Positions 1 to 42,834 of a DNA stretch of 64,000 bases are shown here, in pieces. Numbering within the stretch: position 1 is the stretch's first letter; each line of letters opens with the position of its first letter. The notes under the pieces are model-generated. The model saw only the letters and a list, made by a program, of their open reading frames with translations. It was not told where the DNA came from and ran no database searches. Location of the stretch: positions 7,074-71,073 of the forward strand of contig MFPD01000005.1 of assembly GCA_001784115.1 (NCBI GenBank). The letters are read 5' to 3'. The DNA is from Candidatus Levybacteria bacterium RIFCSPLOWO2_02_FULL_37_18. Its GTDB lineage: Bacteria > Patescibacteriota > Microgenomatia > Levybacterales > UBA12049. The position numbers were made by a program, and so were the translations under genes.

Positions 1-207
1 CTGAAGACAAATGGTTGTCCACCAAAAGAGACCACGTCTCCAGCTTGTAATTCATTAAATTGAACATGAATAGTGCCGTCTGGATTGACTGATTCCTTCC
101 AGCGAGGTCCATCAGCTTGAGCAACTCCTGCTCCTGGTGTATGCAAAGCTGCTAATGTCGCGCCTACTGTTGCTGCTCTTATTAATCTTTCTTTAATTCC
201 TGCCATA
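1..207 (-). CDS. hypothetical protein, N-terminal part only (gene continues past window start); MAGIKERLIRAATVGATLAALHTPGAG...
   Basis: ATG at 205-207 on minus strand, AAGGGGGTG Shine-Dalgarno about 7 nt upstream; frame stays open to the window edge. Confidence 0.4.
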
Positions 208-8062: not shown

Positions 8063-8458
8063 GTTTTTGAGTGTATATTTACTGTAACAACGAAAAAATA
8101 TCTTGTCAATAGATCGAAATATAACAAAGTTGTCATACCCGCTGACATTAAACAGGTTTAATCTATGCGCCAGGTAAAAAGCTGATAAGCATGTTCCGCC
8201 GGTTAAGAAAAATGAGCTAGCAAATGATGCACTAAAAAAAAGCTGTAAAATTGTAATCTGGTGTGGTAGCAAGATAGCCTTATTATTAAGGCTATACATG
8301 GTATCCCCAAACCTGTAATGCTCTATGCCAGGCATTTTTGACAGTTTTGGGCAGCGATAACTTAGGGAAATAACTAACGATTTCAGAAATTGTTAGGTAC
8401 TTAAAAATATCTTGGTAATGGGCATGGGTAAGTATACGGCCAATAATCCACCTTTTTT

Positions 8459-14190: not shown

Positions 14191-17100
14191 TTAATTCACT
14201 ATCCACCAATTAACTTTCAACTTTTCCTCAAGAGCTTCGGGGATGCGGATTTCGAAAGTGTTAGTATTTATTTTTTGGGTTGAAACTGCTGCTGGCGTTG
14301 TGTCGGGCGTGGCAAAAATTAGGGAGTTGGGAGTAAGAGCGGTTGTTTTGATTTGGACAGATGTAAGGCCTGCGCTAATGGTAGCAATTCCGGCGCTTGC
14401 AGAGAGAGCATCTGATGTATCAATCTGTATCTTTACAGTTGTTATAATACCTTTTGTGAACAGATTTCCATTGGTGTCAATAGCCAGGGTGTTAAGGGTT
14501 AAGGGTCCGGTAAGGGTAGATATATTTGCGTTTAGACCATCTATGGAAAGCAATCCTGCTTGAACTGTTCCTGTTATGCCAACATTTGAAAGAAGTGTCC
14601 TGCCCAAAACAGTCAGCGTACCGGAGAGGGTGGCAGATTCAGAAAACTCAGAACGACTCAGAAGGTCAGAAATATCTGATGATCTGATATTCAGACTACC
14701 TGATTCACTGGATATCTGAGTATTCCGAGTATTCTGAATTGCCGTAAGGCTTGCGACTTTTTCTTCCAGGCTTGCAAGGCGGACAAGCATACTGCTTATG
14801 TCATTGCGAGGAGCGGAAACACCTCCGAGGTGTGCTTCTGCTGGAACTTCACCTCGGAGGTGAGCGCTATTACTCGCAGTGACAGAGAAGGTGTCGGATA
14901 GTGCGATATCGAGATCCCCGCTTCCGGTGAATTGAATATTCGGATCATACCACGATACTCCCAAAAGCGTATTCACCCGATCTTTACCTTCCGAATCTTC
15001 CAGCGCTCTTCCCACCACCCATCCTTTTTTAGTGGCTTTTTTTGCAACTCCGGGTGTAGAACTATATGTCAAAAAATCTCTTGGTTTTAATGTTCCGGAC
15101 TGGGTTGATACTTTAACTCGTAATTGTCCTGTCAGCCCGACCAGAACATAATTATCATCATTTTCATGCCCGCCGGCTCCGACAAATCCGGCCTGGTCAG
15201 AAAAAATACCGAGTATTTGATTTTCTTTCTCCGAACACTTAACTGCCCCGCCATCTTCATCCAAGCAAATGAGATCCCCGGGACTCATATTTGTGTCAAT
15301 TAGTGTTCCATCGCTATTTGTGGTATTTCGTGTTTTTCTAAAGTATTCTGCAAAGTCTCCGCCGTTGGTGTCGTATGTCACACTATTTTGGGTTCCATTT
15401 CCCCGTATTTTTCCTGCGATACTGCTGTTGCCGGTTAAGAATGCCACAAAATAATTTGTGGTTGTTGGAGTAAGGGTTCCGACTTTAAGCGCTAAGACAT
15501 CCGCATCTGAATTAACAGAAGAATTGGAAATAAAAGCAGAAACAGTGGCATTATTTGTTCCTTCTGCCAAAATGGCATAATTGGTTGTCGCTCCGGAAGC
15601 AGAAGCGTACAAAGCAACATTAGTCGATGTCGTTCCAGTGTTTGTTACATCAGAGTAGAGGCCATAAGCGGTGTGGGAGGCATTAGCATTTGCACCAGAA
15701 CGAGATAGATTGATTAACTTTGAATTGCCTGATGCTCCTCCTGTTGTAGCAGTAGAGGCGATATCCAGTCCTGTTCCAGTGGTTAATCCATCAACAGATA
15801 AAGACATAGTATTAGCAGTGGATACTGAATCTGCAGTTAAACTCCAGGGAGAAGTAGTAGTACCTGTGAATGTTTGAGAATATGTTCCTTGTCCTGAGGT
15901 TAAAGCTACAGCTCCAATTGATAATAATCCATGGGTAGTGCCTGTTGCTCCAGTTAAAGCAGAAGTTGTTGAAGTATCAGACGCACCATTACCACCTCCA
16001 CCTCCGGATGCCACAGAAGCAGTATTTCCAGCTGAACCATTACCATTTCCACAGCCAGTTGTACCAGAACCAGCAGGATTACCAGCACCTCCACCACCAC
16101 CATAACTATAGGTAACACAACTACCACCATTACCTCCAGCTCCCACAGTGGTATTAGCACTGCCCCCTGTGACAGTCACAGTACCAGCAGTCACTGTACC
16201 CCCATTTAACCAAGCTGTGCCTCCAGCTCCTCCGCCTCCGGGAGCAGCCCCGGCTCCACCACCACCTTGGTTGACACCACCATCTCCAGCTCCTCCATCA
16301 CTACCGGCATTTCCTCCCACAGTCACGGTTCCTGAATTGGAGATAGTACCTGAGGTGTTTATCACAATAATACCTCCACCAGCTCCACCAGCACCACCTG
16401 TACCACCTGCGCCACCGGTTGAGCTGGCATAACCCTTACCCCCACCTGCGCCACCCCCACCCCCACCCCCACCAGATCCCATTACTATTCTTAAGGTAAT
16501 GGTGGGAGTGCCAATAGCTGAAGCTGCGCTACCTGCAGAGCCAATTGCTCCAGTGCCACCAGCAACAGCAGGAGAATTTCCTCCATTAACTGCACTTCCA
16601 GCACCCCCGTCTGTTCCAGCAGTAGCATTACCTCCGCCTGCTCCCATGCCGGCAGTTCCACCAGCACCTGATCCTCCAAGACCGCAGCCTCCTCCTGACC
16701 CTCCATCAATACCGCCGGCATTAGTGGCCACCCCACCTCCGCCTCCTGAAGCTGGTCCATTCCCACTGCTGCCGGCAGTTCCTGATCCGGCAGTTCTGCT
16801 CCCTCCGCACTCAGTTGTTCCTCCCGCTCCTCCGGCCCCGCCTGATCCTCCTGTATATCCTTTTCCAGCCATAGTGACAGTTCCGCCTGGGTTAATGGTA
16901 ACAGTGCCATTTGTCTCAAACCATAATATTCCTCCTACTCCTGTTGAGGTTGACCAGGCTGGGGCTGTTAATGTTCCAGTACCTGTGACTGTGACTGATG
17001 AATATTGAGGAACTCTGACTACCTGGAAACAGGCAGTATCAGAAGAGTTACATCTGTTAACTGTGGTTTGGGTATAGGTGTTATCTAAATTGCTGTCTAC

Positions 17101-20100
17101 TGTTATTTGAGTGGCGGAATCGACAGAGCTAATATACTTTTTATCGTATAATCCTACATTAGCAGTAGTTCCATGTTTCATCTGCATGATTAAGACTATG
17201 TCATTGGCAGTAAGTCCTGTGGTTGAGGCAACAGTCACTGCTTTTTGACCTGAGGAAACAGTCCCGGAAGTAGCTCCTGTGGTAGCTGTGGAATTAATAG
17301 TGGTTGACCCAGACACAGATAAGGCTCCATCAGAGTTGATCCCCGATGGAGGATCAGCTTCAGTTGTATCAATTCTTCCAACATTAGTTCCAGTTGAGTT
17401 TTGGAAATAGATTCCGGAATTATTACCATCACCAGAGGTAGAACCAGTTGCCCTGACATTCGTGTTGTTATTAATTCCAGCAAAGTAATTATTTGCTAAA
17501 AGCGCACCATTATTAGTAAGCCGAAGTTGTGTAACTCCTGATGAACTTGCTGTTAGTAAATCGCCTGTTGTATTGTCTATCTGAAAAGCTGCCCATGATG
17601 TTCGGGCAGAGATACTTGCAACAGGCTGGGTACCGGACTGAGCAGAACCGTACATGTGGAATGTTGCAGCTGAGGTTGATGTTCCGCCAATTAAAAGATC
17701 CTGGGTGACGATGCTAGGCGATAGAGTCCCGCTTGCTTGATTCCAAAGGTTTAATAATTGTGAACCATTGGAATAAATTGTCTGGCCGTAGATATTTCTA
17801 AATTGCACGCTTGAAGTTCCCAAATCAGTTACGTTGGTAGTATTGGGTCTGACAACTCCAGCTGCTCCAGCATTTGAGGGGTTAAAAAGTATATCACCGG
17901 TGGTTGAACCGCCAATGGTTAGGGTGTTGTTTGCTGTTGTCTGGATAGAACTTGCGCCTGTTCTAAAATTAAGACTTGATGAGACTGATGCAGCTCCGGC
18001 TACATCGAGTGCTGCTGTTGGAACTCCTGTCTGGATTCCTAAATTCCCTGCATTTGTCAAAACAAGCCGGGTTGTGCCAGAAGCTGAGGCTGTGAATATG
18101 TCTGTGCTTTCGGTCTGGTTAAAAATTGCCAAAGCTTTTCCTAACACGCCGCCTGCTTCATTAACACCTGAAGTTAAATAAAATGTGCCGATATTAGCAG
18201 GCGGGTAAGCGCCATTCCCGCCAACAACAAGTTGCGCAGCAATTGTTGCAGCTTTATTTATCACAAAACTTTCTGCACTTACGATTACACTGCCTTTATT
18301 GTAAGCAGCCAAAGTTAAATCAGTTGAATTAAATACTTCGCCTGCTTGGATATAAAGGGGTGCTTGGGATTTGATAAAATTAGAAGTTGGGTTTGTAAAT
18401 ACAAGATCATACGCAAGACTTACATCTCCGGGAGCTGTTTCAGATAATGGTAGGGAAGTGGTAATACCTGTTTCTGATATGGCAAAAATAGATGAGCCCG
18501 AATCCAGAATATTAAATAAGTTGCCTGTGGTTGTGCCATTTGAGCCAATATTTAAAGCAAACAAATCTCCGGTTGCAGTTGTTGAAGACCCCGGCGACCA
18601 GTCGATATTAACAAATGTTCCCACCCCTGCTGTTCCGGTAAGCGATGTAGCAGTTGAGCGAATATCAAGAAGGGTTCCTGTAGTTAAGGTATTTGAAGAG
18701 CCTGTTGAGAGCTGGGCAAGCTTGCCTGTGGTTAATGATGAAGAACTTTCGTAAATTCCTGTTCCTGATGTTAAGGAATTTCCGGTAAAGACCCATGAGC
18801 CTGAAGTGGTTGTTCCGGTTGCATTTGAGGAAGTAAATGTCTGAGCGCCTGTGCCTGATGTAAAATTCAAAGCAGTAGCAGAGGTTGAATTACCAATTGT
18901 AATATTTCTTTGCGTTGCATCATTGCCAATATTAATGGTGCCTGTTGTTGTACCGCCAATGGTAAGAGTATTCATCTGAGTGGTTTGAATGGTGCCTGTC
19001 CCATTTCTAAAGTTGAGTGAACTGGAAATGCTGGCTGTGCCTGCTACATCCAACATGGCAGTGGGAAGAGGTACATTTCCAATTCCAACATTTCCGTTGT
19101 TTCGGATAACAAACTGCGGGACACCGGATGAGGAAGCGGTAAAGAGTGGACCAACACCTCTGTTGTCAATTTGAAATCCTGCAAAAGAGGTATTGGCTGA
19201 TACAGAAGCTGCTGGTTGTGTGCCACTTTGAGCTACTCCATATACGTGGAATTGAGCGGATGAAGAGGAGGTTCCGCCAATTAATAAATCAAGAGTGTTA
19301 TTTCTTTGGTTTAAAGCGCCGCTTGTAATATCAAACACACCACCGCCGTAAGTTGGCGAAATAACGCTTCCTTGCCAGACGCCTGTACTAATTGTTCCAA
19401 CAGAAGTCAAGGATGAACTTACAACAGCAGTTCCCAAAGTAGTTGCAGAGAGAACATCAGTTGCGTTAATTTGATAGGTTTTGCCGGTTGATAAGTTCAT
19501 GGTGCCGGTATTTAGTACTGTTCCCGAACCATTTAAAGGAGAAAGGGTAATATTGCCGGTTGTACTTCCTCCAATAGTTAGAGTATTGTTTCTTACAGAT
19601 TGGATTGAACCATCTCCCGAAAGAACCAATGCCTGTCCTGAAGCGTTTTGTGCTGACACAGATGCGGTAGGAGTGCCTGTTCCATTAAGATTTAACACTG
19701 CAAATTTTGAAGAGGAAGTTGCATTGCTGCCAAGTAAAAGATCTGCGGTTGTTTGGGTGGTAAAAAGCGAGCCACTGCCAATTTGCCAAAATCCAACAGT
19801 TCCTGAAGGCCCGGAAATGAGATTACCATTCAAATACAGATTTCGCCACATTAAAGCAGATGAGCCAAGATCAACTGCATTATTGGTAGATGGTGCTACA
19901 AAAGAAGCTGAAGTGCCATTGGCAGGAGCAAGCAAAATATTTCCGGTTGAACCACCGCCAATGGTAAGGGTTTGATTTTTGGTTGTCTGGATATTTCCTG
20001 CTGCATTTAAGGTTAGATCTCCGGAAACAGATGCTGTGGGAGTGCCACTATTGACATTGATGAAAGCAAATTTTGCTGAAGATGAAGAAGTGCCGCCGAT

Positions 20101-21558
20101 TAACAGATCAACAGTAGTATTGATTTGGTAAATTGCTCCATTTGACTGAGTCCACCAATTGATACCTCCGGATGTTGAGCCAAGCTGTGTCCAGGAGGAG
20201 CCGTTGCAATAATAGTATTGGGTCATAGGCCCGTCATAATAGAATCTTCCGGCTGTAGAAGAAGAGCAAGTGCCGGCGTCAGATTGAATACTCGGAGCCA
20301 GAGAAAGAGTGGCAGAAATACTGGCTGATCCGGCGATGTCTAATTTAAAACTGGAATCTGCGGTTGATTTTCCTAAAGCCAGGTTGTCGGTTGAAGTGGT
20401 TAAGGCAACGGAAGTTCCATTGTCTGTAAATCCTGAAATATTTAAATCAGAACTGCTGGGAGTAAAGGTGAGTTTGTTATTGGAAGTATCAATTGCAATA
20501 GCCAAACCTGATCCTGCTGCAAACGTAATGGTGTCTTTTGAATTGCCTGCATCAAAACTTGAGGAGCCTACAGTAATGGTTTTAAATACTTTTAAAGAAG
20601 AGCCGGTATCGGCGTTGGTAATTTTTAATCCATCAACGGTGATTCCATCTCCTGCCTCAAGTTTTAAGTCTCCTGTTTTGCTGCCTAACGAGATTACTCC
20701 GGTATTAGTGATTTTAGGACTTTGTCCGGAAGAGATTGAGACGCCAGTGCCTGCAGTTAGACTGTAGATAATGTTACCCGCAGTGAGTTTGCCTGAACCC
20801 AGATTTATATCTTTGTTGTCAGTTGAAATATTGCTGTTAAACTTTGCTTCGCCTTCAACTGTGAGAGTGTCGGCTAAAACAGAAGGCACATTAACTTTGA
20901 AGGTGATATTTTTAGGAATATCGGTCGCAGCCAGGACCCCGCTTTTACGTTCCAAGGCCTGGTCTTGCGAGGCTAGACCAGGGTGAGATAGTTCGGGCAG
21001 CCCTACTTCCAAAACTCCGGCTCGGTTGAGTGCGCCAACAAGCGAGGTGGAAAAGAGGAGCACAGCAAAGCCCATGATTATTCTTTTCTGAATAACTGTC
21101 AACGCTATGTCATTGCGAGGAATCTTTATTATCGAATCAAGTGTGTTTGCAGTGAAAAGAGAAGATTTTTTGGCGAGATTTGATATGGTTTGATATTCTT
21201 TGGATATTCTTGGATAGAGATTTTTGAGAATCTGATGAATGTCATTTTTAACTTGTTTGAGAAACTTACTTCTTGATTCATTTCGTTCACTCGAAGAAGA
21301 ACTAGTGGTGATCTCTTGAGATTGCTTCACCCCTTCGGGGTTCGCAATTACAAGAGAGGGAGATGTAGTGACAGTTGTCCCCCCCCCCAAGCTATAAACA
21401 CCTGTGAACTCCTGTACTTGTTTTAATGAATACCGTCTTTGGTTTCCGGGAGTTCTCCTGGGTGTTAATACTCCGTTTTTATCATACCGCCTTAGCGTGG
21501 TAATGGATACCCGAAGTAATTTGGCAGCCTCTTGAATAGTTAGTAATGTGTCGTCCAT
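14191..21558 (-). CDS. giant surface protein (2455 aa as one ORF): N-terminal Xis/MerR-type HTH (aa 1-55), G9-encoded GGG, signal/TM (MGFAVLLFSTSLVGA at 21075), long beta-rich repeat region, Gly-rich block, conserved DFAEYFRK domain, C-terminal domain ending NWWIVN
   Basis: continuous ORF; HTH LTIQEAAKLLRVSITTLRRYDKNGVLTPRRTPGNQRRYS; repeats DLLIGGTSSSSA.F.V; paralogous blocks shared with 21676..26985. Confidence 0.75.
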   Translation of the reverse strand: MDDTLLTIQEAAKLLRVSITTLRRYDKNGVLTPRRTPGNQRRYSLKQVQEFTGVYSLGGGTTVTTSPSLVIANPEGVKQSQEITTSSSSSERNESRSKFLKQVKNDIHQILKNLYPRISKEYQTISNLAKKSSLFTANTLDSIIKIPRNDIALTVIQKRIIMGFAVLLFSTSLVGALNRAGVLEVGLPELSHPGLASQDQALERKSGVLAATDIPKNITFKVNVPSVLADTLTVEGEAKFNSNISTDNKDINLGSGKLTAGNIIYSLTAGTGVSISSGQSPKITNTGVISLGSKTGDLKLEAGDGITVDGLKITNADTGSSLKVFKTITVGSSSFDAGNSKDTITFAAGSGLAIAIDTSNNKLTFTPSSSDLNISGFTDNGTSVALTTSTDNLALGKSTADSSFKLDIAGSASISATLSLAPSIQSDAGTCSSSTAGRFYYDGPMTQYYYCNGSSWTQLGSTSGGINWWTQSNGAIYQINTTVDLLIGGTSSSSAKFAFINVNSGTPTASVSGDLTLNAAGNIQTTKNQTLTIGGGSTGNILLAPANGTSASFVAPSTNNAVDLGSSALMWRNLYLNGNLISGPSGTVGFWQIGSGSLFTTQTTADLLLGSNATSSSKFAVLNLNGTGTPTASVSAQNASGQALVLSGDGSIQSVRNNTLTIGGSTTGNITLSPLNGSGTVLNTGTMNLSTGKTYQINATDVLSATTLGTAVVSSSLTSVGTISTGVWQGSVISPTYGGGVFDITSGALNQRNNTLDLLIGGTSSSSAQFHVYGVAQSGTQPAASVSANTSFAGFQIDNRGVGPLFTASSSGVPQFVIRNNGNVGIGNVPLPTAMLDVAGTASISSSLNFRNGTGTIQTTQMNTLTIGGTTTGTINIGNDATQRNITIGNSTSATALNFTSGTGAQTFTSSNATGTTTSGSWVFTGNSLTSGTGIYESSSSLTTGKLAQLSTGSSNTLTTGTLLDIRSTATSLTGTAGVGTFVNIDWSPGSSTTATGDLFALNIGSNGTTTGNLFNILDSGSSIFAISETGITTSLPLSETAPGDVSLAYDLVFTNPTSNFIKSQAPLYIQAGEVFNSTDLTLAAYNKGSVIVSAESFVINKAATIAAQLVVGGNGAYPPANIGTFYLTSGVNEAGGVLGKALAIFNQTESTDIFTASASGTTRLVLTNAGNLGIQTGVPTAALDVAGAASVSSSLNFRTGASSIQTTANNTLTIGGSTTGDILFNPSNAGAAGVVRPNTTNVTDLGTSSVQFRNIYGQTIYSNGSQLLNLWNQASGTLSPSIVTQDLLIGGTSTSAATFHMYGSAQSGTQPVASISARTSWAAFQIDNTTGDLLTASSSGVTQLRLTNNGALLANNYFAGINNNTNVRATGSTSGDGNNSGIYFQNSTGTNVGRIDTTEADPPSGINSDGALSVSGSTTINSTATTGATSGTVSSGQKAVTVASTTGLTANDIVLIMQMKHGTTANVGLYDKKYISSVDSATQITVDSNLDNTYTQTTVNRCNSSDTACFQVVRVPQYSSVTVTGTGTLTAPAWSTSTGVGGILWFETNGTVTINPGGTVTMAGKGYTGGSGGAGGAGGTTECGGSRTAGSGTAGSSGNGPASGGGGGVATNAGGIDGGSGGGCGLGGSGAGGTAGMGAGGGNATAGTDGGAGSAVNGGNSPAVAGGTGAIGSAGSAASAIGTPTITLRIVMGSGGGGGGGGAGGGKGYASSTGGAGGTGGAGGAGGGIIVINTSGTISNSGTVTVGGNAGSDGGAGDGGVNQGGGGAGAAPGGGGAGGTAWLNGGTVTAGTVTVTGGSANTTVGAGGNGGSCVTYSYGGGGGAGNPAGSGTTGCGNGNGSAGNTASVASGGGGGNGASDTSTTSALTGATGTTHGLLSIGAVALTSGQGTYSQTFTGTTTSPWSLTADSVSTANTMSLSVDGLTTGTGLDIASTATTGGASGNSKLINLSRSGANANASHTAYGLYSDVTNTGTTSTNVALYASASGATTNYAILAEGTNNATVSAFISNSSVNSDADVLALKVGTLTPTTTNYFVAFLTGNSSIAGKIRGNGTQNSVTYDTNGGDFAEYFRKTRNTTNSDGTLIDTNMSPGDLICLDEDGGAVKCSEKENQILGIFSDQAGFVGAGGHENDDNYVLVGLTGQLRVKVSTQSGTLKPRDFLTYSSTPGVAKKATKKGWVVGRALEDSEGKDRVNTLLGVSWYDPNIQFTGSGDLDIALSDTFSVTASNSAHLRGEVPAEAHLGGVSAPRNDISSMLVRLASLEEKVASLTAIQNTRNTQISSESGSLNIRSSDISDLLSRSEFSESATLSGTLTVLGRTLLSNVGITGTVQAGLLSIDGLNANISTLTGPLTLNTLAIDTNGNLFTKGIITTVKIQIDTSDALSASAGIATISAGLTSVQIKTTALTPNSLIFATPDTTPAAVSTQKINTNTFEIRIPEALEEKLKVNWWIVN
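14800..14883. repeat. palindromic element (gtcattgcgag...ctcgcagtgac) in frame in giant gene 2 (encodes HLRGEVPAEAHLGGVSAPRND)
   Basis: GTCATTGCGAG terminus with inner cctccgagg / cctcggagg palindrome. Confidence 0.7.
16000..16950. repeat. Gly-rich low-complexity coding block (GGxGGxGG...) with local GC far above the window average, inside giant gene 2
   Basis: runs of ggtgg / ggagg / ccacc codons; plus-strand ORFs here (16148..16432, 16499..17008, Pro-rich) are mirror-strand artefacts. Confidence 0.7.
21379..21387. repeat. homopolymeric tract C9 (G9 on the coding strand) encoding GGG, at the 5' end of giant gene 2 between the HTH and the signal peptide
   Basis: gtccccccccaag on the plus strand. 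Confidence 0.9.
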
Positions 21559-30185: not shown

Positions 30186-33002
30186 ATGAAAGACTACAAG
30201 CCTTTGGAAATTGAGGTTAAGTGGAAAAAAATGTGGGACGAGAAAAAAATATACAGCCCTGATTTGGACAGCGTAAAAAGGCCATTTTATAACCTGATGA
30301 TGTTTCCCTATCCGTCTGCGGAAGGACTTCACGTAGGCTCGGTCTTTACATTCACCGGCGTTGATACATACGGAAGATTTAAACGCATGCAGGGATTTGA
30401 TGTCTTCGAACCCATGGGACTTGACGGGTTTGGAATTCACAGTGAAAACTATGCCTTAAAAGTGGGCCGCCATCCAAAAGAACAGGCAAAACGATCAGAA
30501 GAGAACTTTTATCGACAGCTTTCTTCTATTGGAAATGGGTTTGACTGGAGCAGAAAACTAGAAACATATGATCCAAACTATTACAAATGGACTCAATGGA
30601 TCTTTATACAGCTCTTTAAAAGAGGACTTGCATACAGAAAAAAAGCTCCGGTAAACTTCTGTCCTTCATGTAAAACAGTTCTTTCGGATGAGCAGGTCAT
30701 TGATGGGAAATGCGAGAGGTGTGGTTCGGTTGTCGAAAAAAGAGAGCTTGAACAATGGTTCTTTAAAATCACTGACTATGCAGAGCGACTTTTGAATAAT
30801 ATCCCAAAGTTGAACTGGACAGAAAAAGTTAAGATTGCCCAAAGGGATTGGATCGGAAAGCGGGAAGGAACCACAATCCGCTTTGTCATTGCGAGGACCC
30901 AGAACGAAGTGAAGGGGACGAAGAAATCTCAAAAAGATCAGATTATCATGGGTTCTGCGAACCCTCGCAATGACAGTCAATATATTGAGGTTTTTACCAC
31001 ACGGGGCGATACGCTGTATGGGGCGACGTTTATTGTTTTGGCACCCGAGCACCCGGTCGTCGCTTCGCTCCTCCGGAATTCAGAATTAGAAAAGATACGA
31101 AAGTACGTTGAGGAGGTCAAAAAGAAAACGGAGATTGAAAGGGGAGCACAAGGGAAAGAGAAGACAGGGGTATTTACCGGTTTATACGCGATCAATCCGA
31201 TTAATAATGAATCAATTCCTGTATGGATTGCAGATTACGCGTTGATGGGTTATGGCACAGGAGCATTATTTGGAGATGCGCATGACGAGCGGGACGTAGC
31301 GTTTGCTAAAAAATATGGAATTCCTCTAAAAGCAACTCTTATTACAGGAGACAAAGAAAGAGACGAGCGTATTCTAAAGCTTGAAGAATGTTTTACCGGA
31401 GACGGGACATTGGTTGATTCGGGGGAATTTTCAAGGTTGTCTTCACAGCAAGCACGGGAAAGAGTAGCAGAATGGCTCGAAAAGAATAAAAAAGGAGGCA
31501 GAAAAGTAACGTATCATCTTCGCGACTGGCTTATTAGCAGGCAGAGATACTGGGGGCCGCCGATACCGATGATCTACTGTCAAAGTTGTGCAGGTAAAGG
31601 CAGATCTTGGTTTAATTCCATTGACAGTAAAGAAGAGAATGTATCAAGTATTAAGTATAAGGTATCAAGCAAGGACGGGAAATTTCTTAATACTAAATAC
31701 GTAATACATACTACTGATGACATGGTAGGATGGTATCCAATTCCCGAGGAAGACCTGCCTGTCATCCTGCCCGATGTCCAAGATTGGAGGCCTGAAGGAA
31801 CCGGAGTCTCGCCCTTGGCAAATCATCCGGAATTTTATAAAACAACGTGTCCTAGTTGCGGTGGAAAAGCAAGGCGGGAAACAGACGTCTCGGATACATT
31901 TTTAGATTCTGCTTGGTACTTTTTTAGGTATTTAGCAACGGAGATACATGATGTGCCGTTTCCTTCGGAAGGGTTCATAAATTCCAAATCAACAAATCAA
32001 CAAATCAACAAATCAACAAATTTGATGATTGGAAATTGGAAATTGGAAATTGGAAATTTCGCGAAGCGAGTAAAGTGGCTTCCCGTAACTATGTACATTG
32101 GCGGAGCAGAACATTCGGTTCTCCACCTATTATACTCCAGGTTTATTACTATGGCGTTTAAGGATTTGGGTTTGATTGATTTTGAAGAGCCGTTTGCTCG
32201 GTTTTACGCACATGGACTTATTATTAAAGATAGAGCGAAAATGAGCAAAAGCAAAGGCAATGTCATAAATCCGGACGAGTATTTGGCAAAATACGGCGCA
32301 GATGTTTTACGGGCGTATTTAAGGTTTGTAGGGCCATTTGATATGGGAGGCGATTTTAGGGACAGCGGAATTGAGGGAATGCAGAGATTTTTGAAACGAG
32401 TTTGGAGATTGGTTAATGATGTCATCGCGAGCGAAGCGAAGCAATCTTCTGACCCGAAAGAGATTGCTTCGCCCTCCTTTGGCGAGGCTCGCAATGACAA
32501 TGAGGGAAAACGAGTAATGAATAGGATAATCAAGGGAGTAACAGATGATCTGGAGGCTCTGCGATTTAATACTGCCATGGCAAAGCTGATGACGTGGTAT
32601 AACTATCTTTCTCAGCAAAAAAATGTAAGTAAAAAAGAGCTTGAGACATTTTTAAAGCTTCTGGCGCCTATTGCGCCTTTTATAACCGAGGAATTATATC
32701 AAAATGTCATTGCGAGTCCGGAGGGCGCTGCAATCTCAGATGACGGAAGTTTTCGATCTGTTCATCTTCAACCGTGGCCGTCATACGAGCCTAAGATGCT
32801 GGAAGAAGGAGAAGTAACAATTGTGGTTCAGGTGAATGGGAAAGTTCGTGATTCGTTCACAGTTCATAGTTTACAGTTCACAGAACAAAGCAAAGTTGAA
32901 AAGAAAGCAAAAGAGAGTTCAAAGATAAAAAAGTATATAGAGGGGAAAAAGATTAAGAAAGTCATTTATGTTGAGGGGAAAATTATCAATTTTGTCGTCT
33001 AA
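30186..33002 (+). CDS. leuS: leucyl-tRNA synthetase, carrying three in-frame palindromic-element insertions and one heptamer-repeat insertion
   Basis: LeuS N-terminus MKDYKPLEIEVKWKKMW...FPYPSAEGLHVGSVFTF; KMSKSKGN motif; VKWLPVTMYIGGAEHSVLHLLYSRF. Confidence 0.9.
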   Translation: MKDYKPLEIEVKWKKMWDEKKIYSPDLDSVKRPFYNLMMFPYPSAEGLHVGSVFTFTGVDTYGRFKRMQGFDVFEPMGLDGFGIHSENYALKVGRHPKEQAKRSEENFYRQLSSIGNGFDWSRKLETYDPNYYKWTQWIFIQLFKRGLAYRKKAPVNFCPSCKTVLSDEQVIDGKCERCGSVVEKRELEQWFFKITDYAERLLNNIPKLNWTEKVKIAQRDWIGKREGTTIRFVIARTQNEVKGTKKSQKDQIIMGSANPRNDSQYIEVFTTRGDTLYGATFIVLAPEHPVVASLLRNSELEKIRKYVEEVKKKTEIERGAQGKEKTGVFTGLYAINPINNESIPVWIADYALMGYGTGALFGDAHDERDVAFAKKYGIPLKATLITGDKERDERILKLEECFTGDGTLVDSGEFSRLSSQQARERVAEWLEKNKKGGRKVTYHLRDWLISRQRYWGPPIPMIYCQSCAGKGRSWFNSIDSKEENVSSIKYKVSSKDGKFLNTKYVIHTTDDMVGWYPIPEEDLPVILPDVQDWRPEGTGVSPLANHPEFYKTTCPSCGGKARRETDVSDTFLDSAWYFFRYLATEIHDVPFPSEGFINSKSTNQQINKSTNLMIGNWKLEIGNFAKRVKWLPVTMYIGGAEHSVLHLLYSRFITMAFKDLGLIDFEEPFARFYAHGLIIKDRAKMSKSKGNVINPDEYLAKYGADVLRAYLRFVGPFDMGGDFRDSGIEGMQRFLKRVWRLVNDVIASEAKQSSDPKEIASPSFGEARNDNEGKRVMNRIIKGVTDDLEALRFNTAMAKLMTWYNYLSQQKNVSKKELETFLKLLAPIAPFITEELYQNVIASPEGAAISDDGSFRSVHLQPWPSYEPKMLEEGEVTIVVQVNGKVRDSFTVHSLQFTEQSKVEKKAKESSKIKKYIEGKKIKKVIYVEGKIINFVV
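30885..30974. repeat. palindromic element (90 bp, 30 aa, in frame) inside leuS: VIARTQNEVKGTKKSQKDQIIMGSANPRNDSQ
   Basis: gtcattgcgag...ctcgcaatgac termini. Confidence 0.8.
31985..32060. repeat. heptamer tandem repeats (caaatca x4 then ggaaatt x4) in frame inside leuS (KSTNQQINKSTNLMIGNWKLEIGNF)
   Basis: direct 7-bp repeats visible in sequence. Confidence 0.85.
32422..32499. repeat. palindromic element (78 bp, 26 aa, in frame) inside leuS: VIASEAKQSSDPKEIASPSFGEARND
   Basis: gtcatcgcgagcgaagcgaagcaatc...gattgcttcgcc...ctcgcaatgac. Confidence 0.85.
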
Positions 33003-33897: not shown

Positions 33898-35208
33898 ATG
33901 AACAAAGTTCAGATCGCAGTTGCAGTATTTTTATTTATTGCACTTTTGTTGAGGTTCTATTTCTACTTCCATAATCAAATTCCTTATCAAGACGGGGAGA
34001 AAGTAGAACTGGAAACCACGCTTTTTTCCCAACCAACCGTAGGCAGATTTAATCAAAAACTATTTATCCAAACCAAGCGGGGTCGAGTTTGGGTCATACT
34101 ACCTACGTATCCTCAGTATCATTACGGAGATATTATCCAAATTTCAGGCTCAATAAAATTAAAATCAAGCACTCAGAATAGTGGAATGCTAAGGAAAGAA
34201 AGGGTTATTCCGGTAATCTATTTTCCCGAAGTTGCGCCTGGAAAAAATGATAAAAATTTTGGGTTAGCCCCGATTCAATCGGGGTTAGCAATTGCTTCTT
34301 TCTTTCGCCAAAAAATGATTACGCTTTTTCAAAATTCTCTCTCTTCACCTTCGTCCAGTCTTTTGCTGGGAATTGTTTTTGGGATTAAAGAGTCCGTGGG
34401 TACGCAATTTACCTATCATTTACGAGTGTCGGGGGTTATGCACGTGGTGGCTGCGTCAGGAATGAATGTGACCATGGTAATTGCTTTTTTAACGCCGATT
34501 TTTTTATTAATCTTTCGGCGCCAAATAGCATTACTGCTTGTTGGTGTATGTATCCTATTTTACGCGTTTGTTTCAGGGCTCCAGGCATCGATTGTGCGGG
34601 CAAGCATTATGGGAATGTTTGTTTTAGCAGCTCAAGTCACGGGCAGGCAAACATGGCCTCTCTATGGGCTTTGTATGGCCGGATTTTTAATGCTTTTTAT
34701 AAGTCCTCAAACACTTTTTGACATAGGGTTCCAACTTTCGTTTATATCAACACTCGGATTATTGTTTATTCGACCGCTTATTGGTTTTAAAAATGTATTA
34801 GGAGATGATATGGCAACAACTATCTCTGCTCAAATCGCGACACTTCCCATACTCCTTGGGAATTTTGGCAGTTATTCAGCAGTTTCTGTGGTTGTAAATG
34901 GGTTGGTATTATGGACAGTACCAATTCTAATGATTATTGGAGGAATTGGGGGGCTGATTGGCCTTGTATTTGAACCACTAGGTAAACTTCTCCTTTTTGT
35001 CTCCCTCCCTTTTTTGATATATTTTGAGATGGTAGTGTCATGGTTTGGAGAGCATTCGGGGACAATCTCAGTATCTTCTTTTCCGTGGGAACTTGGAGCG
35101 GGGTATTATTTGATACTTAGTTCCTTTGTTCTCTATTTCCAGAAAACTCGGAATACTCGGAAAATCAGTAATTCAGCACATCAGAAAGCCAGAAAATCAG
35201 AACAATGA
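33898..35208 (+). CDS. comEC: ComEC/Rec2 competence channel, membrane portion (DUF4131 plus Competence domain)
   Basis: LRVSGVMHVVAASGMNVTMVIAF ComEC signature; polytopic. Confidence 0.8.
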   Translation: MNKVQIAVAVFLFIALLLRFYFYFHNQIPYQDGEKVELETTLFSQPTVGRFNQKLFIQTKRGRVWVILPTYPQYHYGDIIQISGSIKLKSSTQNSGMLRKERVIPVIYFPEVAPGKNDKNFGLAPIQSGLAIASFFRQKMITLFQNSLSSPSSSLLLGIVFGIKESVGTQFTYHLRVSGVMHVVAASGMNVTMVIAFLTPIFLLIFRRQIALLLVGVCILFYAFVSGLQASIVRASIMGMFVLAAQVTGRQTWPLYGLCMAGFLMLFISPQTLFDIGFQLSFISTLGLLFIRPLIGFKNVLGDDMATTISAQIATLPILLGNFGSYSAVSVVVNGLVLWTVPILMIIGGIGGLIGLVFEPLGKLLLFVSLPFLIYFEMVVSWFGEHSGTISVSSFPWELGAGYYLILSSFVLYFQKTRNTRKISNSAHQKARKSEQ

Positions 35209-36071
35209 AGAAGCATCTACTTATTATTTGTCTTTCTCTTTTAGCTTTAGCGGGGTTGATCTTGTATCAGCGTTTTATATTTTTTGATGGTAAACTACAT
35301 CTGGTTTTTTGTGATGTGGGCCAGGGAGACGGAATATTTATTCGCACACCGAATGGAAAAAATATTATTGTAGACGGAGGGCCGGATGACAAGATTGTAT
35401 CGTGTTTGTCTTCTCACATGCCGTTTTGGGAGAAAATTATACACATGGTTATACTCACTCATCCCCACGCGGATCACCTAAACGGCCTAATTCCTGTAAT
35501 AAAACGATATACTGTTTTATCTTTTGATACTGAAAAAATCGAAAATAAAACAGGAGGGTTTTTGCAGTTAACGCAAGTAATTCAAAAAAAGAAAATACCA
35601 ATGAGGTTTCTTTGGCAAGGAGACACTTTTGGCATAAAAGACGGAGTTACGCTTACTATTGCCGGCCCAAGTAAAGAGTTTTTGGATGAGACGAGTCCTG
35701 GAGGAACAATCGGAGAGACAAAAGAATTCGGCTCCGTCCAAACACTTGTTTCGTATGGTTCTTTTAGAATACTTCTTACAGGTGATAGTCAGGCACAAGA
35801 ATTAGAAGATGCGCTAAAAAGTGGTATTTTGAATACTATTGATGTATTCCAGATACCACATCATGGTTCGAAAACGGGAGTTAATCGGGAAATAATCGAA
35901 AAGCTTAATCCGAAATTAGTAGTGATTTCTGTAGGAAAAAACAACTACGGCCACCCAAGTCCGGAGGTTGGGGAGTTATTAAGAAATAAAGAGATTAAAG
36001 TGCTAAGGACAGATAAAAATGGAAGTATAGAGATTATAAGCGACGGGAGGAAATTTGAAATTAAAAAATAA
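35205..36071 (+). CDS. ComEC C-terminal metallo-beta-lactamase domain as a separate, overlapping ORF
   Basis: HPHADH motif (VILTHPHADHLNGL), IPHHGS; 4-nt overlap ATGA with the upstream ORF. Confidence 0.75.
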   Translation: MKKHLLIICLSLLALAGLILYQRFIFFDGKLHLVFCDVGQGDGIFIRTPNGKNIIVDGGPDDKIVSCLSSHMPFWEKIIHMVILTHPHADHLNGLIPVIKRYTVLSFDTEKIENKTGGFLQLTQVIQKKKIPMRFLWQGDTFGIKDGVTLTIAGPSKEFLDETSPGGTIGETKEFGSVQTLVSYGSFRILLTGDSQAQELEDALKSGILNTIDVFQIPHHGSKTGVNREIIEKLNPKLVVISVGKNNYGHPSPEVGELLRNKEIKVLRTDKNGSIEIISDGRKFEIKK

Positions 36072-36918
36072 TATTCTCAGATTCGTCTTCTAAGATAACA
36101 TCTTGAATTTGGTCAAAATCGTCGTTTTCGTTTACAAAAGACTCGTAAGAAAGTTGGGGATTGGTTTTAGAAAAATAACTTAATACTTCATCCGGTTGCG
36201 TCCATTCCGTTGTTCTCTGCCCAATATATTCAGGATACGAAGATGGTTGTCCCCAGCTTCGCAAGGCGTGGCCTTGCGAAGCTAAAGCTTGTTTATGAAT
36301 ATAGCGTGATAAATGAAGAAATTGTTCTTCCGTTAGAACAGAAACCCCTTTATACGTATCTTGATATAATGATCCCGTTCTCTTGTATTTCTTATTAAAG
36401 TACATAGTATATCGTGTGCATAATGAATTCATAAATTTATCTATCGAAAGTGCATTTTTTTGCTTGACAAAAAAATGAAAATGATTTGGCATTAAGCAAT
36501 AGGCAAGTAAGGTAATTTCGTCCGCAAAATTATTAAGTCGCAACGCTTTTAGAATTTTATATTTTTCTCTAGAAGATATGTTGGGATCAGCAAGTTGTGT
36601 CCTAAGACCTATTTCGTCTTTCGGAAGTAAATATTCCTCAAGATAACTTAAAAACACAGCATAATCTTGCATGTCTAAAAATATTAATCTTTTTTCAACC
36701 CCTCGATTATAAAGATGATAGTAGCCATTTTCTAAATATTGTTTGACTCTGTTTTTAGCAGGCATATAAAAAGTGTAAAGTTTGCAAAGTTTTTTGTCAA
36801 GAGGTAATTGAGTTCCAAGGCGTGGCCTTGCGAAGCTAGCACTTGCGAAGCTAGCACTTGCGAAGCTAGCAAAACGGGTACCAAGGGTACCAATACGGTA
36901 AAAACCCGTCAAGGTCAA
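36061..36918 (-). CDS. REP-associated tyrosine transposase (RAYT) / IS200-IS605-like HuH Y1 transposase; likely true start near 36765 (MPAKNRVKQY); upstream in-frame part is 15-bp tandem repeats
   Basis: YHLYNRG...NHFHFFV (HuH) ...SRYIHKQALA (catalytic Tyr region), the Y1_Tnp pattern of RayT-like proteins. Confidence 0.65.
   Translation of the reverse strand: MTLTGFYRIGTLGTRFASFASASFASASFARPRLGTQLPLDKKLCKLYTFYMPAKNRVKQYLENGYYHLYNRGVEKRLIFLDMQDYAVFLSYLEEYLLPKDEIGLRTQLADPNISSREKYKILKALRLNNFADEITLLAYCLMPNHFHFFVKQKNALSIDKFMNSLCTRYTMYFNKKYKRTGSLYQDTYKGVSVLTEEQFLHLSRYIHKQALASQGHALRSWGQPSSYPEYIGQRTTEWTQPDEVLSYFSKTNPQLSYESFVNENDDFDQIQDVILEDESENIIF
36826..36870. repeat. 15-bp tandem repeat x3 (cttgcgaagctagca) at the 5' end of the RAYT ORF, plus the palindrome aaggcgtggccttgcgaag also present at 36262-36284
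   Basis: direct repeats; encoded peptide ASFASASFASASFA. Confidence 0.8.
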
Positions 36919-36927
36919 GCTCGAAGA

Positions 36928-38151
36928 CTAAATCGGGATGGAGAAGGTGATGGTGGTGCCCTTGCCAGGCTCGGAATCTAATGTAATAATTCCGCCGTGG
37001 GCATCTATAATTTGTTTGGAAATAAACAACCCAAGTCCGGTGCCTGCAACGTGATTTTTTATTTCGCCTGCGTTTTTGCCGCTATCAATTTGATAAAACT
37101 TGGAAAACAATTCTCCTTGTTGTTCTTTAGGAATGCCAATTCCCGTGTCAGCCACAGAAACAGTAAGCTTTTTTGTTCCGCTTTGTATTAGCTGCGCGCT
37201 AACAGTTATCTTGCCTTTTTCTTGAGTAAATTTAACGCTGTTTGAAATTAAGTTGTTTAACACTTGTCCAATGCGGATTGGGTCAAGCATGACTTCTTTT
37301 GGCACGCTTTTGTCAATTTTAGCCAAAAGTTCAATCTTTTTATTCTTAGCTTGCACAGAAAATACCTCAACAACTTGCTCGATTAATTTTTTTATATCAC
37401 TAGGAGTTTTTTGGATGGTAAACTTGGAAGCTTGGATTTTTGCCAGGTCTAAAAGCGATGATATTTGATCCAAGATTCGTTTGGATTGATCATGTATTAA
37501 CGTAAGCATTTTTTCTCGTTCTTCTCTGCTCAATTTTTTGTTGGTAACCAGTATTTTGGACGCGCCTTTGACAGCGGTAATGGGAGCTCTGAGTTCGTGA
37601 ATCATCATGTTGACAAAATCATCTTTGACAATTGACAAAGAATTGTCAAATGTAACGTCTTTGATGACAAGACAGACAAGGGAGATTCTGGACTCCTCAC
37701 TTCGTTCGTCTCCAGAATGACGAAGAATGATCGGAGCAAGGTTCACTTTGAGAGTTTTTTCTTCTAATTTAATTTCCTGTTCTTCCAGAGCTTTGTTTTC
37801 CGTCAAAGTTTGTTCAACCATTTTCTTTAAATCAAATGTAGGAGGCAGGCTATTGACAATATCAGCCAGTTTTGGCTTGTTTGCCTTTATGCGTAGAATC
37901 TTTTTCGCGGAGGCATTGACAAACGGCAGTTCGTTAACACCGTCAATCATAATGATGCCGTCGGCTAAGTTTTCTAATACATTTTGAGCTATTTGTTCAT
38001 GTATTGATATGGTTTCGAAATCTTTTTTTGACACTCTTTCTTTTTTTAGTTTTTGTTCTTCAATAAATAATCCTAAGGCAGCAACTCCAAGGCAAATGGC
38101 GGCAAGACTCGGAAGAATAACAGGTAAATTAAGCAGGATTTGTAGATTCAC
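36928..38151 (-). CDS. sensor histidine kinase (N-terminal TM, HisKA plus HATPase_c), carrying an in-frame palindromic element (37683-37730)
   Basis: H-box MIHELRAPITAV; G-boxes GTGLGLFISKQIIDAHGG. Confidence 0.85.
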   Translation of the reverse strand: MNLQILLNLPVILPSLAAICLGVAALGLFIEEQKLKKERVSKKDFETISIHEQIAQNVLENLADGIIMIDGVNELPFVNASAKKILRIKANKPKLADIVNSLPPTFDLKKMVEQTLTENKALEEQEIKLEEKTLKVNLAPIILRHSGDERSEESRISLVCLVIKDVTFDNSLSIVKDDFVNMMIHELRAPITAVKGASKILVTNKKLSREEREKMLTLIHDQSKRILDQISSLLDLAKIQASKFTIQKTPSDIKKLIEQVVEVFSVQAKNKKIELLAKIDKSVPKEVMLDPIRIGQVLNNLISNSVKFTQEKGKITVSAQLIQSGTKKLTVSVADTGIGIPKEQQGELFSKFYQIDSGKNAGEIKNHVAGTGLGLFISKQIIDAHGGIITLDSEPGKGTTITFSIPI

Positions 38152-39450: not shown

Positions 39451-39483
39451 CCAATTTACAATTTACAATTTACAATTTACAAT
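39451..39483. repeat. heptamer tandem repeat (caattta x4.5) immediately upstream of the argS start
   Basis: ccaatttacaatttacaatttacaatttacaatg. Confidence 0.85.
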
Positions 39484-41523: not shown

Positions 41524-42834
41524 TTGAATTTTATTACCATGCAATACCAGCGGAGTGTTTTTCCCAATGGTCTTCGCGTACTCACCATCCCCATGCCTTC
41601 GTTTGAGAGCGCTACGGTTTTGGTAATGGTGAGAGCTGGCTCTCGGTACGAAACAAGAAGAAATAACGGCATTTCCCATTTTTTAGAGCACATGGCGTTT
41701 AAAGGGACCTCAAGGCGGCCTTCTGCTTTGGAAATTTCTTCTTTAGTCGACGGAATCGGCGGAGAAGTAAATGCATTCACCGGCAAAGAAACCACGGGCT
41801 ATTACATAAAATCCCAGGCAACACATATTGATTTGTCTTTGGATATTTTGTCAGACATGCTGCAGAATTCCTTGTTTAAGACCGAAGAAATTGACAAAGA
41901 GCGGGGAGTAATTTTGGAAGAAATAAATTTATACGAAGATACGCCGGCTCGAAAAATCGGCGACGTGTATGAAAAACTTTTGTACCAAGATACGCCAATG
42001 GGTTGGGATATTGCCGGAGAAAAAGACGTGATTAAAAGCATTACCCGGGAAGATTTTGTACAGTACATGGAGAGTTTGTACAGCGCGGATAACATTACTG
42101 TTGTTGTTGCGGGCGGAGTTGACAGCAAAAAAGCAGAAGAGTTAGTGGAAAAATACTTCGGGAAAATGCATGCTTTTGACATACAAAGTTATATAAAAGT
42201 ACTAGAAAAACAAGACAAGCCCGAGGTTTTGATTAAGCATAAAAAAACAGAGCAGGTACACATTGCTTTGGGTGTGAGGACTGTTTCGATAAATCATCAT
42301 CACAAGTATCCGCTCTTAGTTCTTTCAGCTATTTTAGGTGGGGGAATGAGCAGCAGGTTGTTTTGTGAAGTCAGGGAAAAAAGAGGACTGGCCTATTATG
42401 TTCGTTCGAGTTCGGATCATTATCAAGACTGCGGAAGCTTAGTAACGACAGCAGGAGTTGATGCCAAACGGGTCGAGCAGGCGATAGAAGTAGTCGTTCA
42501 AGAGTACAATAAAATCTCAAATCAACAAATCAACAAATCAACAAATCAACAAATTTCAAAGGAAGAATTGAAGAAAGCCAAGGAGTATTTGAAGGGGCAT
42601 ATGGTGTTAGAGCTCGAAGACAGCAGGTCGGTGGCTGGATTTTTTGCTTCGCAGGAGTTACTCGAAGAAGGAATTAAAGCACCGGAGGATATATTGCACG
42701 CCATAGACAGAATTACCTTAGAAGACATAAAGCTGGTAGCAAAGACGTATCTTGTTGCGGAAAAACTGAATCTGGCGGTGATTGGTGATTTTGAGGACAA
42801 GGATCGGTTCGAATCCCTCTTGCAATTACAATGA
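41524..42834 (+). CDS. M16 family (insulinase-like) zinc peptidase, with an in-frame heptamer repeat insertion (42519-42555)
   Basis: HFLEHMAFKGT inverted zincin motif (HxxEH); 436 aa. Confidence 0.85.
   Translation: MNFITMQYQRSVFPNGLRVLTIPMPSFESATVLVMVRAGSRYETRRNNGISHFLEHMAFKGTSRRPSALEISSLVDGIGGEVNAFTGKETTGYYIKSQATHIDLSLDILSDMLQNSLFKTEEIDKERGVILEEINLYEDTPARKIGDVYEKLLYQDTPMGWDIAGEKDVIKSITREDFVQYMESLYSADNITVVVAGGVDSKKAEELVEKYFGKMHAFDIQSYIKVLEKQDKPEVLIKHKKTEQVHIALGVRTVSINHHHKYPLLVLSAILGGGMSSRLFCEVREKRGLAYYVRSSSDHYQDCGSLVTTAGVDAKRVEQAIEVVVQEYNKISNQQINKSTNQQISKEELKKAKEYLKGHMVLELEDSRSVAGFFASQELLEEGIKAPEDILHAIDRITLEDIKLVAKTYLVAEKLNLAVIGDFEDKDRFESLLQLQ

Follow-up and report, generated by a model that had tools for sequence, protein, structure and literature searches.

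A probable branch of REP-associated tyrosine transposases with a three-hairpin arrangement in the Patescibacteria, represented by a partly decayed locus in Candidatus Levybacteria

REP-associated tyrosine transposases (RAYTs, or TnpA-REP) are established as the enzymes of REPtrons, in which a RAYT gene is flanked by cognate repetitive extragenic palindromes (REPs), the REP variants are specific to the gene, and paralogues are low in copy number and diverged (PMC6006769). Examples are YafM of E. coli and the RAYTs of Pseudomonas and Stenotrophomonas (Nunvar 2010; Bertels & Rainey 2011; Ton-Hoang 2012; reviewed in PMC6006769). The same survey gives the definitions of the Y motif, including Y-x-x-x-NP for class 2 (PMC6006769, Table 1), allows for atypical REPs that lack GT[AG]G in subclasses 2.6 and 3 (PMC6006769), and reports REPs in frame within tnpA-REP for subclass 2.4 in Cyanobacteria and Bacteroidetes (Quentin et al. 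2018, PMC6006769). REPs also occur within other genes and at the 3' ends of genes, and they are targets of insertion sequences (ISs) (Di Nocera 2013, PMC3733652). Here we analyse a stretch of 64,000 nucleotides from Candidatus Levybacteria bacterium RIFCSPLOWO2_02_FULL_37_18 (the window, whose coordinates are used throughout), in which a minus-strand gene at 36061..36765 encodes a RAYT-like protein of 234 aa and carries a REP-like hairpin within its own reading frame. We consider it likely that this gene encodes an intact HUH/Y1 single-stranded DNA nuclease-ligase of the RAYT kind in a REPtron-like arrangement, and that it belongs to a very large Microgenomates/Patescibacteria family. The window locus is a partly decayed example of the three-hairpin layout of this family.

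The gene lies in an open reading frame (ORF) at 36061..36918 of the minus strand (285 aa from a TTG) that contains YYHLYNRG, PNHFHFFV and YIHKQ. This is the pattern from which an earlier, sequence-only reading of the stretch had proposed a RAYT-like HUH Y1 transposase, and a profile search agrees with that identity: the Pfam family Y1_Tnp (PF01797) matches with 47.5 bits against a gathering cutoff of 23 (E = 2.4e-12, profile positions 38-121 of 121). The best match among the NCBIfam models is REP_Tyr_transpos (NF047646; 35 bits, E = 1.2e-8), while the IS200 model reaches 15 bits against a cutoff of 55 (E = 0.022). The histidines of the HUH motif, read from the sequence as His95-Phe96-His97 within NHFHFF (36475..36483, minus strand), are invariant in an alignment of 18 homologues (A1), and a weak sequence match to the PDB (2xm3, E = 1.1) places them opposite the HUH of ISDra2 TnpA. 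The predicted catalytic tyrosine, Tyr155 (36301..36303, minus strand), belongs to YIHKQ, a Y-x-x-x-Q motif, of which Y155, I156, H157 and Q159 are likewise invariant in A1. It is found on helix 146-162 of an AlphaFold2 model of the 234-aa protein, which has a mean predicted local distance difference test score (pLDDT) of 80.

A search of the PDB sequences with a family profile returned nothing at E <= 0.01, and a fold search was therefore needed. With Foldseek, the best PDB match of the model is 4er8_A (E = 8.2e-5, TM-score normalised to the target 0.62), the E. coli RAYT bound to a REP hairpin. It is followed by 2f4f, 2xma and 2a6o, which are TnpA structures of IS200, ISDra2 and IS608, and all of these matches including 4er8_A have a probability of 1.00. 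Relative to the solved TnpA and RAYT structures, the model has about 45 extra residues, forming three helices, between strand 1 and strand 2, and the protein has an additional conserved C-terminal tail of about 60 aa with an 'SS' motif (QPSSY). The profile scores and the modelled fold identify the protein as a Y1 HUH enzyme, nearer to the RAYTs than to IS200 TnpA. The family is very large: a word-indexed search found more than 7,900 homologues, mostly of 225-235 aa, and an exhaustive search found 14,144 clusters at 50% identity with E <= 1e-3, and 210 with E <= 1e-30. Where the sources name an organism, it is a member of the Daviesbacteria, Levybacteria, Microgenomates or Patescibacteria.

The hairpin inside the gene, AGCTTCGCAAGGC-CAC-GCCTTGCGAAGCT (36255..36283), has a perfect stem of 13 bp, with arms at 36255-36267 and 36271-36283 and a loop of 3 nt. 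Folded as DNA it reaches -16.4 kcal/mol (z = -5.6; 0 of 200 shuffles were as good), and it scores 52.5 bits on a model of the family hairpin (R1). It encodes the residues (L)ASQGHALRS at about positions 161-170, just past the catalytic helix, and the pLDDT of the loop that it codes for drops below 50 at residues 165-169. The peptide LASQGxALRS is a mere translation of the palindrome, and this stretch uses GC-rich codons despite the 39.5% GC content of the genome.

A second copy, TAGCTTCGCAAGGCCACGCCTTG-GAAC (36812..36838, minus strand), lies upstream of the gene, at a position that corresponds to the upstream hairpin of homologous loci. It is identical to the internal copy over 23 nt and keeps the foot, the left arm and the loop (TAGCTTCGCAAGGCCAC), while its right arm is reduced to GCCTTG-GAAC. 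This truncated copy scores 20.9 bits on R1, with a gap of 1 nt in the right arm, and its fold is no better than that of shuffles (z = -1.0). The sequence-only reading had described two copies of one palindrome bracketing most of the gene. The 23-mer CAAGGCGTGGCCTTGCGAAGCTA is indeed present twice in the window, at 36262-36284 and 36816-36838, but the complete palindrome at this locus is the inner copy only. A downstream copy was not found at the window locus. When up to one mismatch is allowed, the window contains 7 occurrences of the word CTTGCGAAGCT where 0.98 would be expected, with all 5 exact occurrences at this locus, and this excess together with the z-score of the internal fold indicates that the palindromes are not due to chance. 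Also upstream, at 36827..36871 of the minus strand, there is a perfect tandem array of three 15-nt units, TGCTAGCTTCGCAAG on the gene strand (TRF period 15, 3.0 copies, 100% matches). Each unit repeats the hairpin's foot and left arm, which are thus present in triplicate.

To describe the arrangement in the family we use 80 homologous loci (L numbers below) taken from GTDB species-representative genomes of Microgenomates (Patescibacteria). In these loci a hairpin with the consensus TTAGCYTCGCAAGG-loop-CCTTGCGARGCTAA is found upstream of the gene, at its stop codon and, in most members, in frame inside it. Words of the linker that follows YIHxQ/N recur on both sides, about 490-560 nt away in the upstream direction and about 215-260 nt away in the downstream direction. 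The upstream hairpin is located 20-80 nt before the start codon and the downstream hairpin at or over the stop codon, which in L008, L013, L019, L035 and L069 is the TAG of the hairpin foot. Both flanking hairpins are present without the internal one in L038, L045, L056 and L072. The homologues are flanked on both sides by one type of hairpin that changes with the gene, and the suggestion of the sequence-only reading that the palindromes are the gene's own is supported in this respect. Some flanks contain two inverted, REPIN-like copies (L005, L037, L059, L071), and the orientation of the loop is often inverted between the copies of one locus.

The stretch from the Y motif to QPSSY is variable in length, and in many loci it forms a perfect hairpin whose core is CAAGG/CCTTG and whose outer stem covaries. 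The arms are AGCTTCGCAAGGC/GCCTTGCGAAGCT in the window, GTTGAGTTTGCAAGGAG/CTCCTTGCAAACTCAAC in L006, TTTTCCTGCAAGGCG/CGCCTTGCAGGAAAA in L037 and CTCCAAGGT/ACCTTGGAG in L012. The consensus of 38 hairpins is TTAGCCTCGCAAGG-CCAGG-CCTTGCGAGGCTAA; at one of its stem positions 20 of them have CG and 18 have UA, with none unpaired, and among the internal copies TA/CG swaps are seen at stem depths 4-7. The insertion site follows the Y motif (residues ~161-170, the tyrosine being Tyr155) in all members that have an internal copy. Since the REP-coded peptide is found in every clade of the protein tree and always in the same frame, with scattered absences, it points to one ancestral in-frame insertion, followed by later losses and by continuing homogenisation with the flanks. 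As a separate observation, the similarity of the proteins P0125, P0131, P0144 and P0152 to our query ends at residue ~160-162, exactly at the site of the internal hairpin. Past residue ~160, such relatives are mostly more distant proteins with other tails, or they show apparent frameshifts.

The three hairpin copies of a locus evolve in concert. When the upstream and downstream copies of the same locus are compared, the longest shared word has a median of 16 nt and is at least 12 nt long in 50 of 68 loci, against a median of 8 nt and 60 of 680 comparisons between different loci (Mann-Whitney p = 1e-23). Similarly, the internal and upstream copies share at least 12 nt in 43 of 68 comparisons within a locus but in only 37 of 680 between loci (p = 2e-20). 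Some metagenome-assembled genomes contain 2-4 paralogues with 53-70% identity to the query, such as L022, L039, L046 and L055 in JAUSHL01 and L029, L033, L044 and L080 in JBBTXW01. A more distant second Y1 paralogue (28% identity) is found in a Daviesbacteria locus (L040, 1213-1785), 1.2 kb upstream of the RAYT homologue, and no obvious flanking hairpins are seen around it.

We take the true coding start of the window gene to be the ATG at 36765, as judged from homologous sequences and gene calls. A methionine is the first residue in 18 of 18 sequences of A1, followed in the pattern MP[AS][KR] in 17 of them and as MAAR in one, the database protein P0001 is 100% identical and exactly 234 aa long, and the same ATG is used by the gene calls on eight loci fetched with the exact protein. 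The TTG at 36918 was considered as a start and rejected, because of the N-termini of the homologues, the database gene calls, and the presence of a terminator-like hairpin and a promoter within the supposed extension. The extension is unlikely to be translated given that this hairpin, at 36877-36891, falls within it. The three 15-bp repeats reported by the sequence-only reading are real as a perfect array, but they are therefore upstream non-coding DNA and not an N-terminal extension of the protein.

Between the stop codon of the upstream histidine kinase gene (36928) and the ATG, a terminator-like hairpin and its T-run (36891-36877) come first, followed by the array, then by the truncated hairpin and finally by a promoter. 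The terminator-like hairpin, GGTACC-CTT-GGTACC followed by CGTTTTGC, is situated on the minus strand after the kinase gene; a '9-nt tandem repeat' that TRF reports at 36876-36893 (GGGTACCAA x2) is in fact this hairpin plus its T-run. The putative promoter is sigma-70-like, TTGACA-17 nt-TACACT (36772..36800, minus strand), and matches the consensus at 10 of 12 positions. Its -10 element ends 6 nt ahead of the ATG, and from this spacing the mRNA is probably leaderless or near-leaderless. In the family, 26 of 69 loci have a TTGnnA-16..18-TAnnnT pattern that ends 3-12 nt (mostly 5-6 nt) before the ATG, compared with 9 of 1620 random positions, and in 19 of these 26 loci the -35 hexamer is part of CCTTGCRA, the right arm of the upstream hairpin. 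An arm of the upstream hairpin may thus serve as the promoter -35 in this family.

The gene is bordered upstream by the histidine kinase gene (36928..38151) and downstream by a convergent gene for a ComEC-type metallo-beta-lactamase (35205..36071), the 3' end of which overlaps the stop of the RAYT-like gene by 11 nt. The latter gene is part of a ComEC-type competence pair (Competence domain plus metallo-beta-lactamase) at 33898..36071 on the plus strand. With the kinase and ComEC as neighbours, tnpB is absent from the locus, and tblastn detects no further RAYT copy in the window.

The upstream array varies among otherwise identical strains. Out of 21 contigs read that carry exactly this protein, all from other samples, eight loci were fetched, and their coding sequences show no differences from that of the window. 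ComEC is found downstream in 8 of 8 of these loci and the same histidine kinase upstream in 7 of 8, all but the IS variant. The array has three units in the window and in L094-L098, two in L093, and is irregular in L099. In L100 and L088 it is replaced by a gene for a DDE-transposase (IS4/IS1634-like) that abuts AGCTTCGCAAGG. The length variants together with the IS insertion indicate that the upstream left arm is a hot spot for slippage and IS insertion. The break of homology at the hairpin arm in L088 was examined as a possible end of a mobile unit, but this was rejected, as the DDE-transposase gene, an ORF of 491 aa, is inserted right at the arm. Elsewhere in the window there are many perfect tandem arrays with 7-8-nt units (32028-32058, 39452-39483, 41017-41050), and one identical array, CAAATCAA x4.6, is present twice, 10.5 kb apart (31985-32021 and 42518-42554).

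How far has the cognate hairpin spread beyond the gene? In the window, a generic scan for CAAGG-N(1-9)-CCTTG and a covariance model of the 38 hairpins find only the two copies at the gene. A third, degenerate copy, TAGCCTCGCAAGACCAGGCCTTGGAAC (20949..20975, minus strand), lies 15.8 kb away, in frame in an ORF of 2455 aa (14191..21558), where it encodes LASQDQALE. It is identical to the upstream copy at 24 of 27 positions, including the odd GCCTTG-GAAC end, and we estimate that 128 kb would contain about 6e-7 chance matches to a 27-mer if up to 3 mismatches are allowed. With 8.2 bits on R1 it is below significance by structure and clear by sequence. A small hairpin at 8273-8296, TAGCCTT-6 nt-AAGGCTA, looks like a RAYT-type hairpin reduced to its outer foot and lacking the centre (R1 12.3 bits, E = 0.28, not significant). 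An Rfam scan of the window finds four tRNAs only and no known RNA family at the hairpins. The exact hairpin of the window is present in 12 metagenome loci, of which 3 are in or adjoining RAYT homologues and 9 are RAYT-free. These RAYT-free copies are mostly located at gene 3' ends or between convergent genes, and no RAYT remnants are detected beside them, even at E <= 50. Among the 80 genome loci, 6 have further long hairpin copies 0.9-3 kb from the gene, with no second RAYT copy close by. From the flanking DNA we roughly extrapolate to a small hairpin population of tens of copies per genome at most. For the sequence-only reading, a refuting outcome would have been an orphan gene in single copy with palindromes confined to it. 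The gene is a single copy in the window, with one degenerate extra hairpin, but the identical hairpin at RAYT-free sites shows that the palindromes are found elsewhere.

These observations can be explained by an enzyme of the RAYT kind acting on its own REPs. By analogy with the E. coli RAYT and with IS608 and ISDra2 TnpA, the protein would bind hairpins extruded in single-stranded DNA, for example at the replication fork, and would cut and rejoin the DNA adjacent to them. Such cutting and rejoining could spread a low-copy family of hairpins to gene ends and occasionally into genes and, together with gene conversion between nearby copies, could keep the three copies of a locus alike. The internal copy, which is homogenised along with the flanks, would descend from a single ancestral in-frame REP insertion into a tolerant surface loop. 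At the window locus, decay would then have removed the right arm of the upstream hairpin, triplicated its left arm in an unstable array, and led to the loss of the downstream copy, and a separate TTGACA promoter would have taken over.

Several points weigh against this explanation. The score of 35 bits on the RAYT equivalog model NF047646 is far under its cutoff of 80, and the window protein has YIHKQA, the Y-x-x-x-Q signature of the IS200 class, rather than the Y-x-x-x-NP of class-2 RAYTs; YIHRNP is present in other members of its family. The canonical REP tag 5' GT[AG]G is absent from the consensus of the 38 hairpins, nTTAGCCTCGCAAGG...CCTTGCGAGGCTAAn, in which a foot YTAGC is paired with GCTAR. 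The hairpin is hardly dispersed in the window, where 64 kb contain a single degenerate extra copy. Between distant genomes the surroundings of the gene change, which would also fit a mobile gene: ComEC is within 3 kb of a RAYT homologue in 3 of the 80 GTDB loci (L044, L046, L050), in differing arrangements, and the kinase and response regulator are beside no other homologue in these loci. As a test of vertical inheritance versus mobility, conserved synteny did not discriminate. Lastly, binding and cleavage of the hairpins by the protein are predictions, and ordinary gene conversion, with no role for the enzyme, could homogenise short repeats that are separated by about 0.5 kb.

Three other explanations have to be weighed. 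The gene could be an autonomous IS200/IS605-type insertion sequence, with the hairpins as its left and right ends, moving as a single-stranded circle, and with the internal and tandem copies as scars. The Y1 HUH fold and the Y-x-x-x-Q typical of IS200 TnpA would fit this, as would the hairpins at both gene ends in most homologues, the 2-4 paralogues of genomes such as JAUSHL01 and JBBTXW01, and the changing neighbourhood between distant genomes. We nevertheless consider it quite unlikely. At 53-70% identity to the query the paralogues within a genome are mutually diverged, whereas IS copies are about 99% identical (PMC6006769, Table 1), and the window has one copy only, in a context that is fixed across the fetched loci apart from the IS variant. 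The flanking hairpins are moreover the same perfect palindrome rather than distinct imperfect left-end and right-end structures, tnpB is missing, the IS200 model falls well short of its cutoff, and the same hairpin stands alone at RAYT-free sites. Alternatively, the hairpins might be ordinary terminators or stabilisers of mRNA unrelated to the enzyme, the internal copy being a neutral in-frame insertion and plain gene conversion keeping the copies alike. Effects of REPs on the stability of mRNA and on termination are known (PMC3733652), isolated copies lie at gene 3' ends, often between convergent genes, where they can supply TAG stops, and in the five loci named above the downstream copy adjoins the stop codon or overlaps it. 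We find this quite unlikely as well, because the upstream copy overlaps the promoter of the gene itself and not merely the end of the previous gene, regular T-runs do not follow the hairpins, and a strong hairpin inside a conserved frame across the whole family tree is unexpected for a terminator. In addition, the hairpins at the three fixed positions are of a variant particular to each paralogue, as published for the co-evolution of RAYTs and REPs.

The remaining candidate is the one put forward tentatively by the sequence-only reading, namely that the enzyme mobilises the abundant GTCATTGCGAG palindromic elements of this genome. These elements are real, with 22 half-sites in the window against 0.67 expected, mostly as inverted pairs 60-100 nt apart, and the RAYT-like gene is the only Y1 gene found in the window. 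There is also a shared octamer, TTGCGAGG, common to the arm CCTTGCGAGG of the family hairpin and the outer arm GTCATTGCGAGG of the GTCATTGCGAG elements, in inside-out order, but the window's own hairpin differs from it by one base (TTGCGAAG). Not one of about 80 homologous genes has GTCATTGCGAG at its flanks, and the motif is present in only 6 of 92 fetched loci, at irregular distances and never at the conserved flanking positions. According to the published rule each RAYT is flanked by its own cognate REP, and here the homologues are flanked by CAAGG/CCTTG hairpins with a TAGC...GCTA foot. Nor is the distribution of the GTCATTGCGAG...CTCGCAATGAC elements related to the gene: they are confined to 1331-32716 (for example 14800-14883, 22549-22623, 26251-26322 and 30885-30974) with none in the 33-64 kb part, and 12 of 14 lie inside long ORFs (1608, 2460, 1802, 333 and 945 aa) that read straight through them. 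A role in mobilising them is hence very improbable, and the comparison of loci suggests that the cognate element of the enzyme is the CAAGG/CCTTG hairpin, the two being unrelated families in one genome. The giant ORF at 14191..21558 carries both GTCATTGCGAG-type elements and the degenerate RAYT-type hairpin.

A stronger form of the RAYT explanation is that the locus is a self-referential unit, in which the recognition hairpin is placed inside the frame of the enzyme, after the codon of the catalytic tyrosine, and is held identical to the other copies by the cut-and-join activity of that same enzyme. We regard this as unlikely. If it were true, the locus would be a natural record of REP homogenisation driven by a RAYT. 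Direct copies bracketing the promoter and the catalytic core (554 nt apart in the window) could permit excision or inversion and so act as a self-limiting switch, and the hypervariable left-arm array and the upstream hairpin used as -35 would be parts of an autoregulatory circuit.

Returning to the RAYT explanation in its general form, the in vivo role of RAYTs on REPs is unsettled, and the evidence for co-evolution comes mostly from Proteobacteria with hundreds of REP copies. The family described here offers a compact natural test case in the tiny genomes of Patescibacteria, with thousands of diverged genes that have 2-3 hairpins of their own each, so that the covariation of hairpin and enzyme and the homogenisation of the copies can be read directly from the sequence. 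It also provides a defined substrate for biochemistry, and a case in which one REP may serve at once as promoter -35, stop codon and coding sequence. For annotation, our results correct a likely recurrent error, in which N-terminal extensions are called through the upstream hairpins.

When compared with known systems, the family resembles REPtrons in several features. It has a Y1 HUH enzyme with a single catalytic tyrosine and the E. coli RAYT-REP complex as best fold match, short GC-rich palindromes that bracket the gene, are specific to each gene copy and are also found at the ends of other genes, a low copy number with diverged paralogues and locus-specific hairpins, and inverted REP doublets in the flanks of L005, L037, L059 and L071. 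It differs from REPtrons in the missing GT[AG]G tag, in place of which there is a YTAGC/GCTAR 'double foot' within the stem, in a Y motif YIH[KR][QN][AP] that is not strictly Y---NP and switches between Q and NP within the family, and in the about 45 extra residues (three helices) and the conserved tail of about 60 aa. The REP population is apparently small, the arm of the upstream REP seems to double as a promoter -35, and the hosts are Patescibacteria, which the 2018 survey does not mention (PMC6006769). With subclass 2.4 the family shares a cognate REP copy within the transposase gene, in a peripheral loop and with the frame intact, and the 'double foot' type of REP. Unlike there, the site is fixed, as it directly follows the Y motif and separates the catalytic helix from the SS-containing tail, and the insertion looks ancestral to the whole family and co-evolves with the flanking copies.

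The TnpA proteins of the IS200/IS605 group (IS608, ISDra2) have in common with the window protein the HUH/Y1 fold and Y-x-x-x-Q, and their elements likewise have hairpins near both gene ends and a promoter beside the left hairpin. The window family, in contrast, has no identical multiple copies and no tnpB, both of its ends carry the same perfect palindrome, and its protein is about 80 aa longer and does not reach the NCBIfam IS200 cutoff. A further parallel is provided by the Rickettsia palindromic elements (RPEs; Ogata 2000/2002), which are short palindromes in frame in coding genes and tolerated in surface loops. Similar cases in the window are the RAYT-like gene, the copy at 20949-20975 in the giant ORF, and the GTCATTGCGAG elements. 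The RPEs have no known associated enzyme, whereas the window hairpin type is tied to a Y1 gene. Within the literature that we searched, for the hairpin sequences or for RAYTs together with Patescibacteria, we found nothing relevant and no description of this arrangement, and a large branch of the RAYT kind with a three-hairpin architecture in the Patescibacteria is apparently undescribed. What the family adds to the known systems is its host lineage, the non-GTAG foot, the switch between Y---Q and Y---NP, the fixed insertion site after the tyrosine, the concerted evolution of the three copies, and the use of the hairpin foot as stop codon and, as it appears, of the hairpin arm as -35.

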